DNA from: Carcharhinus amblyrhynchos
Lineage: Eukaryota
Assembly: GCA_965287045.1 (NCBI GenBank)
Contig: OZ336873.1
Coordinates: 18,476,001-18,540,000, forward strand
Reading direction: 5' to 3'
Length of the DNA stretch: 64,000 bases
The notes beneath the pieces are model-generated. The model did not search any database and was not told where the DNA came from. It worked only from the letters and a program-made list of their open reading frames with translations. The translations under genes were made by a program, and so were the position numbers. Below, one piece after another: positions 17,221 through 23,611 of the stretch (position 1 is the first letter of the stretch; every line of letters starts with the position of its first letter).

Positions 17221-18049
17221 TCAGATTATCAGATTAGACTACGGTTGTCTTCAAATGCAACTCCCAGAAGATGAATGAATAATATATTGATGGACTGAAC
17301 CAAACAGTAACGCAGCCTCTACTTCTGCTGTCTCACATTTGCTGACATTCGCAATTAAAATTACAAGCCACCAGTGAACAGCAGAGCTCCAGCTTTCAAC
17401 CAAGTGGAAGTTTCTGTTGTACATGTTACCTATCACCATGAAAACTTCAACCAAATTTTCCTTCAGAGCAGGCACTGTTGGAAACCAACATTGCAAATGT
17501 GCAACGCAAAATATAGCAGCAAAGGACGTGTGGGGGCAGGGGACTTTCAATCAAAAAGCCAACAGCTAATATTCATTCAATCATGCATGTGCATCGAAGA
17601 ACTCCAACCTCTCTTCATACTGTGATCAAAATCTACCTTCGAATATTCCAGAAAGAAAATGCATTTTTTTCCTCTCCATCATCGTTCAGTGGTTTACGGC
17701 CCCCAGCTCAGGAGCACAATTATAATAAATGTGCAGCTGGTTTGAACTGGCTTAGCTCTTAAACTGAATAAACCAAACCAATTCATGGCTGCTGACTGCT
17801 AATTGGAATCAGACCCAGGATCAAAAAACATAGAATTCCTCTGAAATTGTGTCTGCATTGTCTTTAGTTGTTGCAGTAAAACTTGACAATTTTGCCTAAG
17901 TACTTCTTTCTTAGTGGAGAAAACTGGCATTATGTCACACAAAGGAACTCCAGAGTTCACCTTCCAAAGGTTCACCTTTTTGGTTCCTCTCTCTAAACAA
18001 TCATCTCAAGCCAACTCTCATTTCCTTAGACCTGGGTTGTTCAAACATT

Positions 18050-18340
18050 TTAGTTTATTTATTAGTGTCACAAGTAGGCTTACATTAACACTGCAATGAA
18101 GTTACTGTGAAAATCCCTGAGTCACAACACTCTGGCGCCTGTTCGGGTACACTGAGGGAGAATTTAACGTGGCCAATGCACCTAACCAGCATGTCTTTCA
18201 GACTGCAAACTGGGGGAAGCCCAAGCTGACACAGGAAGAATGTATAGACACCGCACAGACAGTGACCCGAGCCGGGAACTGAACCTGGGTTCCTGGTGCT
18301 GTGAGGCAGCAGTGTTAACCATTATGCCACTGTGCTGCCA
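18050..18340 (-). mobile_element. HE1-type SINE, alternative tail
   Basis: Homologous to 12130-12415. Confidence 0.85.
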
Positions 18341-18954
18341 CACTGCCACATGTGTGAAATGCTGACAACAACCCAGTTTTCAAAGTCCAGGCAATTCGTT
18401 TGGCAGATAGGTTTTATGGATTAATTAGCCCAACCTATAACCCAGAGCTTTGGGCAACAAGTGCATACATTAAAAATCCAGACATTTAGATTAACACTTC
18501 CTGCACGACATTAAATTATGACCACTGTGCATTAAACGTAACAAAAGCTTTTGATTTTAAATCTCTCTTCTGAGCATCATCACAAAAAAGGCAAGTGATG
18601 AGGTGAGGGGGTTAAGATCCTGAAAATTAAAGTTCTGCCTTCAACACATCACATTTCCGCTGCCACAATAGTAACTTTGGTAATTCAATGCCTGGGTAAA
18701 ACTCCCGTGAGAAGCAGGCAAGGGCCTTAATTAGAATGTAAAACTGGTGAGACCATTGGCACTGTGATGTAATATTAATGGTCAGTCAGGGTGCCAAGCA
18801 GCAGAAACATGGCAAGAGGAGCCAACTGGCTAGGAGAGACCAAATAAGTTCCAGAAGAGTAGCCCTCTTTGAACTCTTTGTGAAACGGGAGTGCAACCCA
18901 ACAGGCCACGAAAGGAGTGCTTGGGCCTCCGCCTAGTTTACATGGAAATGTAGA

Positions 18955-19215
18955 AAATAGAAGCACGAGTAAGTCATTCAGCCCTTCGAGCCTGTTCCTC
19001 TATTCATTTCGATCATGGCTGATCATCGATTTGAATATCCTGGTCCTGCCTTCCCACCATACCCCTTGATCCTTTAGCCCCAACAGCTATATCTAATTCC
19101 TTCTTGAAATCAGGCATGGCCTCAATTACTTTCTGTGGTAGTGAATTCCACACATTCAGCACTCTCTGGGTGAAGAAATTTCTCCTCACCTCAGTCCTAC
19201 AAGGTATACCCCTCA
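18955..19215 (-). mobile_element. CR1 LINE 3' end
   Basis: RTEVRRNFFTQRVLNVWNSLP motif plus CR1 3' UTR. Confidence 0.8.
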
Positions 19216-19423
19216 TCCATTAATGTACTGCATGGGATTCCCAACCTTCTCTGATCAGACATGGTGATTGCATTGGACCCCTCCTCCTTCCCATGCAACA
19301 AAATTCATACTGCCACCCCCTGATCAGGTTATGAATCTGGCCAGCGCAAAAAGCAATGTTCTGCAGATGTTGAAGTAACAACAGCAAGTGCTGGAAATAC
19401 TCAGCAGGGCAGGCAGCATCTTA

Positions 19424-19752
19424 TCATAGAACCCTACAGCGCAGAAAGAGGCCCTTCAGCCCATCAAGTCTGCACCGAACACAATCCCACCCAGGCCCTA
19501 TCTCCATATCCCTACATATTATATCCACTAATCCCTCTAACCTACATATCCCTGGACACTAAGGGGCAATTTCTTAGCATGGCCAATCAACATAACCCAC
19601 ACATCTTTGGACTGTGGGAGGAAACCGGAGGAAACCCACGCAGACACGAGGAGAATGTGCAAACTCCACACAGACAGGGACCTGAGCTGGGAATCGAACT
19701 CAAGATCCTGGAGCTGTGAAGCAGCAGCGCTAACCACTGTGCTACCGTGCCG
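19424..19752 (-). mobile_element. HE1-type SINE
   Basis: Full head-to-tail copy inserted into a short palindromic repeat. Confidence 0.88.
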
Positions 19753-19808
19753 CTCTGAGGAGAGAGAAACAGGGTTAACATTTCAGGTTGACAACCTTCT
19801 GTTGAAAG

Positions 19809-20023
19809 TTTTTTTTTAACTTCATCCTTAAAGTTACAAAGCCAATGCTCAGAGTGGACTGGGCAAACCCAAATCCATTCCTTGCTTGCTCCAAAAAAAC
19901 AAATTCAAAATCTAATTAAATCCAATTCATGGTCCTCACAAGAGAGACAAATAAGATCCAAGTTGATAAGATGAGACACTGCACCCCAACTTAGGCTTGA
20001 TCTTAGCCAAAAGGCTGAGACCG
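19809..20023 (-). mobile_element. U2 snRNA-headed, poly(A)-tailed short retroposon
   Basis: Minus strand TCTCAGCCTTTTGGCTAAGATCAAG (20020-19996) matches U2 snRNA nt 7-31 at 24/25. It is followed by ~180 nt of non-U2 body and A9 (plus strand T9 at 19809-19817). Confidence 0.65.
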
Positions 20024-21329
20024 TTGACCTGAAGCGCCAGCTTCACTTGTCTCTCCATAGATGTTGCCTGATTAACTCTGGCGGGTTGTTCTCAGGGAGG
20101 TTATATTTGACGATCATAATAGGGTCTACATGTTCCTAAGCTGAGTGGGTTTGCAACCCAGGACCAGGAGGGTGCTCACGCTTCCTGCATGTACCCCACC
20201 CAACATCTCTCCTGTAAAACTCGAGGCCAAAGTTTCTATCTTTATGCAAATTCTTTTTTTTTACAATGTAAATAGGCAGGCACTGAATGCAGTGAAACTT
20301 CCTGCCTCCTCAGAGATTTACTGCTGACAACAATAGCATTGCTCTCGACAGTATCCTAACAAACATTAGTGTTATATAAATTCAATTAATGAACCCGCCG
20401 CAGGGATAAGGCATGACCAAAGCAGGTCAATGCATTCAAAAATGATCATAAATGATTCTGTATTTTTTAAATTTGTTATGGGAACTCATAACCTGGCATA
20501 TTGGTTATTTCCCCTAACATCGGCCTACATTGTTATTTTGGTATTTCTATCAGCAAATTGCATGCTCACTGAGTCATATACAAATGCCTCTTCAAAGCAG
20601 GATGATTCAAGGCGAATTAACAAGGGTTGTGAATTACTGTCATTAAGAGTGATGTTCTGTCCACCCGGGAGAAAACAATCATTCTTTGCACCCAGAGTGG
20701 TCTCCTCTAATGGGTACAAGCATGGAATGTGAATGTTGCCATGTGTCTTTGAATTCTAATTTTGATTGACAACTTAGTTTAATTGTGAAGTTTATCTTCC
20801 AATTTCCTTTTTGATCAGTTCAGATGTCAAAGGGGGGTGAGAGTTGGCTAACATCTAGACTCTTCAGAGAATTTTTGTATCGCCCAGCATTTGTGATCAG
20901 CATAACATATGGCAAAATGTTCACAAACTTTGCATCACAGGCGCAAGTCCAAACTAGGAACCTTACCAAGGAAATTTATGAACATTTCAGCAAGTTTTAT
21001 TGTGGAATAGGACTGTAGGGATGAAATTGGTCTTAAACTGTGGCTTGTTTTACACCCTGCCAATTTCTTTTCCATTGAAGTAATTTGACAATACGTTAGA
21101 ATTTATTTATTCTGAGGACCAATTTCATACCCGAAAGCTGAAGTCAAGATAATACAAGATTGCTTTGTTGTTGGTATTATCTTCAAAAACCCGCTGTAAT
21201 TGTCTGATCTCATCAATAAAGCTGAGGTTGAACAACTACAACAATAACAACTTTTATTTGCACAGCACCTTTAATGCAGTATAAGGCACTTCATAAGGGT
21301 GATTGTCAGACAAAATTTGATAGTGAGCC

Positions 21330-21653
21330 ATCACGGTGACACAGTGGTTATCACTGCTGTCTCACAGCTCCAGCGACCTGGGTTCGATTTCCAGCTATCT
21401 GTGTGGAGTTCACACAATGTCCCTGTGTCTGTGTGGTTTCCTCCAAGTGCTCCAGTTTCCTTCCACAGTCCAAAGATGTGTGGGTTAGGTTGATTGGCCA
21501 TGCTAATTTGCCCCTTAGTATCCATGAATGCGTAGGTTAGAGGGATTAGCTGGGCAAATATGTGGGATTGTGGGGATAGGGCATGGGTGCAGTTGTTGTC
21601 AGTACAGACTCGATGGGCCGACTGGCCTCCTTCTACGCTGTAGGGTTTCTATG
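21330..21653 (+). mobile_element. HE1-type SINE
   Basis: Head, V-domain and CR1-type tail. Confidence 0.85.
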
Positions 21654-21898
21654 AAAGAGGTATAAGGACAAGTGAACTTCAATCGCATTTCTGTCTCTTT
21701 ATATGGATGTGAAAACTTTTATTTCATAATTATTGTATATAGCATCAAGAAGATCAATTGAAACAATTTTAAAATATGATACTACTGGAATTGAAGTCAC
21801 ATAGCAACATTTTCCCACATGGCCTATGTATCGAATTCAATATAACAGAGTTCTGTTACAATATGCATTTTGAGATATTTATAGGATCAAGAGAAACC

Positions 21899-23611
21899 GC
21901 ACTTTAAGGGATGGCAGCAGGTCATCACTAGAGGATAAGTGTGTCACATGATCCGGTTTTCATTTCAGTCTGATCTTAGAGCAGAACACACAACACACTG
22001 CTCTGTCGCTGATGTCTTCAAGTTTTCTACCTTTGTATAGCTATTCTCATGTGCCCAGTCTAAATGAACCCGCAATCTTCACTGAATTACTTATGAGTGA
22101 TTGGTGTCTTGAGATTATTATAAAAACGCAACATGCTCCAAACCTAATTATATAGTTTTCCACCATTCAGTTATTCATATGGTTTCCGCCAGATGTAATC
22201 AATTCTTCATTAAATAGAATTAGTTCAACATTTACACAAAATTAATGAAAATTTGAATTAATTGTCACACTGAGGCTCTTCAATCATGGAAACCAAATAA
22301 GGAATAAATGAGGAATTAGTGGTACTGAAGTATGTTTTGGTAAAAGGATTTTGCTGCACTGATACAACTAAATATTTGTAAACACTTCTTGGGGAAGATG
22401 ATGTCTCTTTAAAAAAAACTCAAATCAAATAGGTATAATGAATAAGAGAATGGATATCAATGATTACTTCATAAAAATGGCAATATAAATCCATGTAAGC
22501 ATTGTAGATATCATAAAACTACTGCTCAGAGTCTTGTATGAGCGGTGATGAGTATACCGTCAAGTGATTTTCCAAGCAGCCTCAGGACATTGGAAACAAC
22601 TTTGGTTTGATGTGTTGTCACCCATGGTAAGAAGTCTCACGACACCGGGTTAAAGTCTAACAGGTTTATTTGGTAGCACAAGCCACAAGCTTTCAGTGCA
22701 CTGCCCCTTCATCAGATGAGTGGGAGTTGTGTTCACAAACAGGGCACAAAAAGACACAAACTCAGTTTAAAAGATAGTGGTTGGAATGCAAGTCTTTACA
22801 GATAATCAAGTCTTAAAGGTGCAGACAATGTGAGTAGAGCCTGTCCAACCATTATCTTGTAAATTGAGTTTGTGTCTATATGTGCCCTGTTTACAAACAC
22901 AACTCCCACTCACCTGATGAAGGGGCAGTGCTCCGAAAGCTTGTGGTTTGTGCTACTAAATAAACCTGGTGGACTTTAACCTGATGCTGTGAGACTTTTT
23001 ACTGTGCTTATCCCAGTCCAACACTGGCATCTCCACATCATTGTCACCCAAGGTCAGTACTGTAATTTCTCCCATTGTTTCCTGACAGGACTGGCTGCTC
23101 AACTAATATTACCAGAGAGGCTGAACAAAGACGTGCGTCTCTAGGGAGAGGCTGGACAAGCTACCCAACACACAGCCACACAAGAAGCCACCTGCTGGCA
23201 TTTAGTTAGCTTGCCTCCTCTTTCTCAAATTGTAAGCAATATGCAAGTGGCTTGGGTAGAGCAAAAGAAGTGGAAAAGCAAAATATTTAAACTGAAAAAT
23301 ACACTGGAATTTTCCCATCCTGCCCACCACAGGGATTGTACTGGGGGAAAGAGGAGCGGAGAGCGCAGAGGTGGACCATGCAAAGATCCATTGACCTCAA
23401 GACGTGTTCAGTTATAATATGCACTTTAAAGGATAGCAACAAGCCATCGTTTGATAAGTATGTCATGTGATCTGGTCTCAGTTTTACTCTGGTCTTTGAG
23501 CGGAACTTATGGCACATTGCTCTGTCGCTGATGTCTTCAAGTTTTCTACCTTTGTATAGCTATTCTCATGTGCCTAGTCCAAATGAACTCACAATGTTTA
23601 CTCAATATCTT
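21899..23611 (+). repeat. Local direct duplication of ~190 bp (21899-22092 and 23421-23611)
   Basis: 57-bp identical core at 21999-22055 and 23518-23574, with diverged but alignable flanks. Confidence 0.85.
22625..23040. mobile_element. Penelope-type inverted pseudo-LTR insertion with hammerhead cores
   Basis: TSD TTGTCACCCA at 22615-22624 and 23041-23050. Imperfect inverted arms. CAC-CTGATGA-AGGGGCAGTGCTCC-GAAA-GCTT-GTG at 22911-22945. Confidence 0.8.

Follow-up and report, generated by a model that had tools for sequence, protein, structure and literature searches.

A U2 snRNA-derived retroposon family in the Carcharhinus amblyrhynchos genome and its probable links to Keno-related Tx1 elements and U2 promoters

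The window element and its surroundings

The window analyzed here is a stretch of 64,000 nucleotides from Carcharhinus amblyrhynchos. It carries, on its minus strand, a 212-bp element that ends in nine A residues (19817-19809) and begins with a piece of U2 small nuclear RNA (snRNA). Against the U2 of this same genome, the head matches nt 7 to 31 at 24 of 25 positions, exactly as an initial annotation of the sequence had described, and the A9 end is likewise where that annotation placed it. The annotation also held that the head leaves U2 just before the branch-point recognition sequence GUAGUA and that the following ~180 nt are unrelated to U2. Neither statement holds. The body aligns to U2 from nt 32 to approximately nt 182-187 with a score of 111 (shuffled sequences, 47.6 +/- 6.0, with 0 of 2,000 reaching 111), and 93 of 140 aligned columns up to U2 nt 182 are identical. 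The branch-point recognition sequence is present in mutated form (GTAGTA to GCAGTG), behind a 12-nt insertion. In an Rfam search, the whole element falls on positions 1 to 192 of the U2 model with 32.5 bits (E = 5.7e-4), below the model's gathering score of 46; a scan of positions 18000 to 22000 returned no ribozyme and no other family of note. The features of the locus are collected in Table 1.

Table 1. Features of the U2-derived element and its flanks, in window coordinates.
Feature	Position	Strand	Remark
One arm of interrupted inverted-repeat element	20021..20075	.	
U2 head, nt 7-31 (stem-loop I)	19996..20020	-	24/25 identical to the genome's U2
12-nt insertion, family-wide	19984..19995	-	second copy of U2 nt ~20-31 in some older-type copies
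50-nt hairpin module, not in U2	19954..20003	-	predicted fold, family majority
U2 stem-loop IIb equivalent	19931..19949	-	body alignment and folding
Sm-site region	19891..19930	-	~18 nt longer by short tandem duplication; T4 and T7 runs
U2 stem-loop III equivalent	19851..19890	-	young-subfamily form
U2 stem-loop IV remnant	19821..19850	-	~7 nt of loop deleted
Tail ending in A9	19809..19820	-	target-site duplication not detected
Spacer remnant and other arm of inverted-repeat element	19757..19808	.	followed by tRNA-type SINE

The window copy does not resemble a functional U2 snRNA gene, given its altered branch-point recognition sequence and its Rfam score. Where the promoter elements of such a gene would be expected, its upstream flank is an arm of another repeat. 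We infer that it is a dead, promoter-less product lodged inside that repeat. Each of its two flanks matches one arm of a short inverted-repeat element known at other loci, in line with the earlier view that a short repeat had been interrupted; the two arms match each other weakly, with 80 of 2,000 shuffles reaching their score. As had been noted before, the window holds only one copy of the family, and this copy has no clear target-site duplication (best score 6, within the null distribution). An empty-site reconstruction found no copy spanning the window site among the fetched loci. A tRNA-type SINE (window 19755-19425, minus strand), which we take to be HE1/V-SINE-like, also divides this inverted-repeat element, at a point ~50 bases away from the U2-derived copy.

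Some 100 kb 3' of the element, and likewise on the minus strand, are exons encoding a PI-PLC-X domain. The proposed sense orientation to the PLCG2 pre-mRNA is thus consistent with these exons as far as orientation to a PLC gene is concerned; a protein-motif scan of the window itself for PLC exons gave nothing useful. Elsewhere in the genome, three intronless PI-PLC-X sequences with open frames of ~890 codons are present (G000:C2:98.2 Mb, C27:27.9 Mb, and C11:26.6 Mb). Among public sequencing runs, 20 rows from 11 studies, under several organism codes, contain part of the stretch, 12 of them with at least half of its words, and no RNA run is listed among these 20 rows.

Two U2-derived families and their U1-headed relatives

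A genome search with the 215-bp sequence returned 4,367 first-look candidates. Among the best 40 scored, 39 were non-self, and these show 83 to 90% identity and lie on many contigs. We refer to this family as A. The flanks of 30 of its loci are mutually unrelated. A 24-mer from the body, allowing at most 2 mismatches, has 664 + 728 = 1,392 matches in the genome (reversed control, 0), a floor with a small overcount from some tandem or duplicated matches; the 24-mer detects 25 of 29 young-type copies and 1 of 29 old-type copies. From these figures, we estimate 2,000 to 4,000 copies in total. Target-site duplications scoring at least 8 flank 11 of 56 copies, where cross-locus pairs predict 1.3. 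This count excludes 11 of 67 loci, which have no 3' end or are split; it includes L014, at which the duplication coincides in part with a U1 extension and could be spurious. Tails are A-rich, with a T run in many, and truncated starts occur among the 29 copies sampled. A genome search of the kind suggested in the initial annotation came out in favor of a dispersed, non-autonomous, SINEU-like family, with U2/body junctions common to the copies, A tails, and target-site duplications.

Family A is subdivided and is old, because other repeats have later inserted into several copies and split them. A GC-rich 5' extension that seemed to be shared by some copies proved to be such later insertions, with the head found further upstream in L058, L065, and L066. 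From 96 loci, 81 copies could be aligned, comprising 27 of an older type, 52 of a younger type that includes the window copy, and 2 unclear. Divergence from the copies' own majority is 10.7% for the 27 old and 9.5% for the 52 young copies, both low estimates, the copies having been sampled by similarity; divergence from U2 is 28 to 34%. The majority heads match U2 at 27/28 (old) and 26/27 (young) positions and the bodies at 102/142 and 92/140, respectively, and judged by these alignments the older type is nearer to U2. A second copy on the same strand lies within 1.5 kb at 3 of 67 loci. We also observed a 64-bp internal piece of A amplified as a short tandem array (L054/L055, G000:C1:36.09 Mb), as well as ten A matches on one strand at 50- to 100-kb spacing (G000:C4:70.70-71.31 Mb), probably a segmental duplication array.

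The family as a whole is colinear with U2 from nt 1 to ~182, with insertions and only one deletion, of ~7 nt. Its copies have in common an altered branch-point recognition sequence, 12 nt inserted after nt 31, a tandem-expanded Sm region, and the deletion in loop IV. Family A displays five traits of the SINEU class: a head derived from U1 or U2, a non-coding unit of <500 bp with an A tail, dispersed copies with a common derived structure, LINE-type insertion marks, and recurrent 5' addition of U1 or U2 pieces. On these grounds, the family is very probably of SINEU type.

The recurrent 5' additions are visible in the layering of the heads. The 12-nt insertion, given its reading as U2 nt ~20-31 in some old-type copies, is likely the remnant of an earlier head. 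Of 72 near-complete A copies, 40 carry it singly, 30 have a further 12-nt repeat, and 2 are unclear; such repeats would represent a stack of older heads, onto each of which a newer piece of U2 was added. U1 can take the place of U2. In 4 of 96 A copies the upstream sequence contains a U1 piece, compared with 0 of 476 control windows, and a 25-mer from a variant-U1 head has 152 matches (control, 0). Among 25 of these variant-U1 loci that were examined, 4 proved to be complete variant U1 genes; in 17 of the remaining 21, A-type sequence follows within ~270 bases. The resulting composites (L153-L168, L173, L176, and L177) consist of a variant U1 head, a linker, and a U2-derived body, several are without the 3' half, and in their makeup they resemble crocodilian SINEU-1 and SINEU-2. 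Variant U1 genes on G000:C40 (L169-L172) are 85 to 91% identical to the main U1, and their 5' part matches the composite heads. At one further locus (L089), an A copy is preceded by a U1 piece and by the U2 head in inverted orientation.

A sister family, B, is ~310 bp long, has a head comprising U2 nt 1 to 39, and has 2,637 first-look candidates (L180-L207, L222-L237, and L272 were read). Target-site duplications flank 8 of 30 B copies, compared with 1.2 expected. B is probably younger than A, since its best-ranked copies are 96 to 99% identical to the majority over the query stretch. It carries two hairpin modules related to the single one of A. In B, the branch-point recognition sequence is intact and is predicted to pair with a linker whose sequence is similar to the head in antisense orientation (score 27, reached by 5 of 2,000 shuffles).

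The A hairpin, as a family majority, has z-scores of -3.6 (young) and -2.3 (old), compared with +0.4 for the matching stretch of U2, and the two B modules have z-scores of -3.1 and -3.6; the window copy's own hairpin folds weakly (z = -1.7). The 50-nt A hairpin is predicted to pair up U2 nt 23 to 31 and the mutated branch-point recognition sequence. By eye, the ten inner pairs of B module 1 differ from those of A by four two-sided changes, one one-sided change, and one broken pair, and module 2 differs by one double and two single changes with none broken. Template switching within inverted repeats can imitate compensatory change. Stem-loops I, IIb, and III keep their predicted pairing, and stem-loops III/IV fold no better than shuffled sequences (z = -0.3 and -0.5). 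Selection for masking of the branch-point recognition sequence is a tentative reading of these predicted folds, one that we consider somewhat doubtful.

Keno-like Tx1 elements and U2 upstream DNA

The true U2 genes of this genome lie in a 10.5-kb tandem array on contig C45. One gene is interrupted after nt 26 by a tandem array of insert units (G000:C45:1795665-1848200, L133-L138), ~13 units of 4 to 5 kb, each with a U2-like 5' end, in which 13 junctions lead from poly(A) into U2 nt ~38-57. A second gene is interrupted after nt 40 by a truncated element that is followed by U2 nt 38 to 187. Keno-like sequence in a U2 gene is also located at C45:1925259-1926638 (L142). The open reading frames of the inserts encode RVT_1 and zinc-knuckle domains. 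From their target and their protein likeness to Tx1, the inserts are likely Keno-like Tx1 elements, a name that is in part our assumption. One unit of the array also holds a CR1/L2-type open reading frame on the other strand. The Keno label otherwise rests on two published descriptions (PMC4494074 and PMC4640811).

Several observations connect these elements with families A and B. Keno-related sequence of 70 to 79% identity abuts 4 of 96 A loci on the same strand, ending before three and starting after the fourth, an adjacency counted with no null model. Keno-type ends precede tandem B copies at L234 and L272, and 1 of 39 B loci in another count. A hexamer resembling a poly(A) signal occurs in the tails of 9 of 23 old and 28 of 50 young copies and loosely resembles the Keno end; at most the last ~15 bases of the element, made up of this hexamer, a T run, and an A run, resemble Tx1 ends. 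We found no long 3' sequence in common with a LINE, saw no target sequence in common with Tx1 in the loci, and found no U2 head piece upstream of the Tx1 sequence abutting L084, L086, and L106 in the sequence examined. A Keno-related Tx1 is probably the mobilizer.

The initial annotation had offered a U2 head joined to a LINE tail, or a U2/Keno chimera, and the U2-derived body, which runs to ~nt 182, disposes of the first. A 1.3-kb Keno-like insert, used as a query that excluded the Keno 5' half, has no blastn or tblastn match to the element bodies at 96 loci, which speaks against the second. A U2 head fused to the 3' tail of a LINE or of Keno, whether throughout a family or in occasional chimeras, could draw on the Tx1-like last ~15 bases and on the U2 targeting of Keno-like elements, whereas the U2 origin of the body, its lack of any Keno-insert match, and the junctions common across copies make it the least probable of the readings considered here, to the point of dismissal.

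With 300 bases upstream of U2 as the query, 17 matches were obtained, of which 12 are intact promoters. A duplicated, inverted locus stands at both edges of the U2 array (G000:C45:1954420-1955520 and 1756128-1757228; L145 and L129, L178/L179). It contains U2 promoter blocks of 80 to 85% identity (L178/L179), in register with U2 nt 1 to 14. A retrocopy of ribosomal protein S13/S18, in antisense orientation, separates these from U2 nt ~25-38 and the B body, which is identical to the B majority at 131 of 139 positions; the head of this B element ends at nt 38-39. The promoter, whole but decayed, is split by a tRNA-type SINE, and the B copy is broken, without its 3' half. Rather than a source, this locus may represent a copy that inserted into a U2 gene. 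At a distance of 20 kb, a whole B element (L222) follows U2 positions -37 to -1, without a clear proximal element and with a deletion absent from most B copies.

A pattern spanning U2 positions -17 to +9 has 18 matches (control, 0). Twelve are U2 genes or interrupted U2 genes, and all six others lead into A or B elements: the duplicated locus (two), L222, L223, and L272, with B, and L273, with a young-type A copy. The pattern was written after three of the six were known, and the independent finds are L272 and L273 only. L223 and L272 have one design: U2 sequence that stops at nt 36-38, which is the Keno site, then ~18 upstream bases, then B. The A copy at L273 matches the majority at 180 of 202 positions and has 12 of 17 upstream bases, with no match further up; the chance of such a match is ~0.002 if 10,000 heads are assumed. 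These 17- to 19-base extensions could stem from template jumps onto 5'-extended U2 RNA.

No A copy was found behind a whole U2 promoter among the 17 promoter matches, among the best 40 of 124 candidates, in 400 kb around the array, or among the 72 near-complete A copies, for which the best score to U2 -40 to -1 is 16; the queries left out more decayed promoters, the upstream DNA of a variant U2 array, and U1 promoters. On the sequence evidence, source genes behind U2 promoters are likely to have existed for family B, and for family A we regard them as an even proposition. The variant U2 (177 to 181 bits) forms a 407-bp tandem array (G000:C98:27138-75074 and C334; L041 and L042), and the DNA upstream of it does not resemble that of the main U2 genes. 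At another locus (L224, G000:C41:5.65 Mb), a near-complete U2 without its last ~25 nt is followed by sequence like the downstream box of the U2 gene.

Explanations and known relatives

The explanation we favor, and consider probably correct on the strength of sequence comparisons, is that these elements are a dispersed retroposon made from U2, likely copied by a Keno-related Tx1 and likely transcribed behind U2 gene promoters. Under the proposed mechanism, a U2 retrocopy would have turned into a source gene on coming to lie behind a U2 promoter, and polymerase II would have made a short RNA starting at U2 +1. A Tx1 reverse transcriptase would then insert the element RNA by way of its A tail. 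The same enzymes would place elements into U2 genes, or jump template onto U2 or U1 RNA, and either event would give a new source gene a fresh head together with an external, snRNA-type RNA polymerase II promoter. Only source genes in which the branch-point-reading parts of U2 had mutated, or were hidden by folding, would have been retained. In its fullest form, this proposal describes an independent, uncatalogued SINEU superfamily outside crocodilians, with several thousand copies, in which Keno-type insertion into U2 genes creates the source genes and antisense hairpins that mask the branch-point recognition sequence are required; we put this fuller version forward as a speculation that could well fail in one of its parts.

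The strongest alternative keeps the same family and changes the source of its transcripts. Copies would be expressed by read-through from flanking promoters or introns, heads would be gained only by template jumps, and the promoter-bearing loci would be dead ends of U2-site targeting. This would account for the extra U2 pieces with differing ends that precede L027, L181, L198, L200, and L207, for the absence of 3' transductions of U2 (nt 38 to 90 behind the tail in 0 of 90 copies), and for the absence of a promoter before dispersed B copies (0 of 28), and transcription from flanking sequence is also what Kojima 2015 (PMC4494074) proposes for SINEU-2. However, the start of complete copies coincides with U2 nt 1 or falls immediately after it, and the flanks beyond are unrelated, which is the pattern that initiation at an snRNA promoter would produce. 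Within families, the head junctions are fixed as well, as in the single and double 12-nt repeats of the 72 near-complete copies, and U2 upstream DNA stands in register at six places. We therefore consider read-through transcription rather unlikely.

Alternatively, the copies might be retropseudogenes of one or a few real, variant U2-like snRNA genes that have a cellular job, in which case they would be passengers and no self-propagating SINE would exist. Their near-whole U2 length and the predicted pairing kept in stem-loops I, IIb, and III fit such an origin, as does the new hairpin, which is kept between the families with changes on both sides; the genome also has variant U2 and U1 genes and the promoter-bearing B loci. 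On the other hand, family A has a mutated branch-point recognition sequence and a deletion in loop IV, the Rfam score is under the gathering cut-off, and no intact A gene emerged from the promoter searches. Repeated restructuring, in the form of U1 heads, duplicated modules, and lost 3' halves, is typical of SINE lineages. This explanation appears improbable. Less likely still is a polymerase III SINE whose U2-derived portion acquired A and B boxes internally: on inspection by eye, the head and the duplicated Sm region contain words resembling such boxes, whereas internal runs of T4, T4, and T5, the first ~15 bases from the start, interrupt the majorities of both the young and the old type, and polymerase III is disfavored because of them.

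If the fullest form of our proposal is true, it would explain how SINEU elements are transcribed, and no earlier SINE lineage would have been shown to rely on snRNA-type polymerase II promoters taken from other genes. U2 upstream DNA that leads in register into the elements offers a concrete, testable answer to the question of what promoter SINEU elements use, and a second lineage of the SINEU design, with its U2-only body, serial U1/U2 heads, and likely Tx1 partner, suggests that U2-targeting Tx1 enzymes generate such elements repeatedly. There are also practical consequences, in that thousands of U2-like heads are easily miscalled as U2 genes in annotation, and intronic copies in the sense orientation could in principle pair with U6 or with branch points.

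In the published account, SINEU elements were found only in crocodilians, with their transcription left open since snRNA genes are without an internal promoter (Kojima 2015, PMC4494074), and a 2017 review repeats this crocodilian-only range (PMC5381603). Our literature search, which drew largely on sources other than subscription journals and Repbase Reports and included PMC5381603, PMC8455134, and PMC4640811, found SINEU described from no other group. An existing entry for the family in Repbase or Dfam is unlikely, though a real prospect.

Among retrocopies of snRNAs in general, processed U2 pseudogenes and U6/U2-LINE chimeric retrocopies of mammals (summarized in PMC4494074) are alike in that an snRNA is copied by a LINE and acquires a tail and a target-site duplication. 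The mammalian retrocopies arise singly from the snRNA, whereas A copies have ~30% derived changes as well as indels in common and fall into subfamilies. Keno and Utopia, as described in PMC4494074 and PMC4640811, insert into U2 genes, and the genome's Keno-like Tx1 agrees with them in this, its tail being followed by U2 nt 38. Tandem copies here have a 20-nt U2 piece between them, and the B head ends at nt 39. Family A differs from Keno in that it encodes nothing, has no Keno-derived body, and is dispersed beyond the U2 genes.

The crocodilian SINEU-1 and SINEU-2 (PMC4494074) are alike in their serial 5' additions of U1 and U2, U1 + U2 composites, partial duplications, and 5' extensions. No snRNA promoter was found for them in that account, whereas here U2 upstream DNA leads in register into elements. 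Mobilization by Tx1 was argued for SINEU from a common target preference (PMC4494074).

The closest known system, set beside family A by its published description, is crocodilian SINEU-3. According to PMC4494074, SINEU-3 has ~1,600 copies at 89% identity to the consensus, 90% of them inserted into Mariner-N4_AMi. The two are alike in being almost all U2, with a U2 5' piece of ~31 to 32 nt, poly(A), internal oligo-T, and a link, for A a probable one, to Tx1. SINEU-3 has an internal U2 deletion of ~50 bp and ~40 bp of non-U2 3' sequence, and A lacks both; A instead keeps U2 to ~nt 182 and carries insertions, and the loci that we read show no such target.
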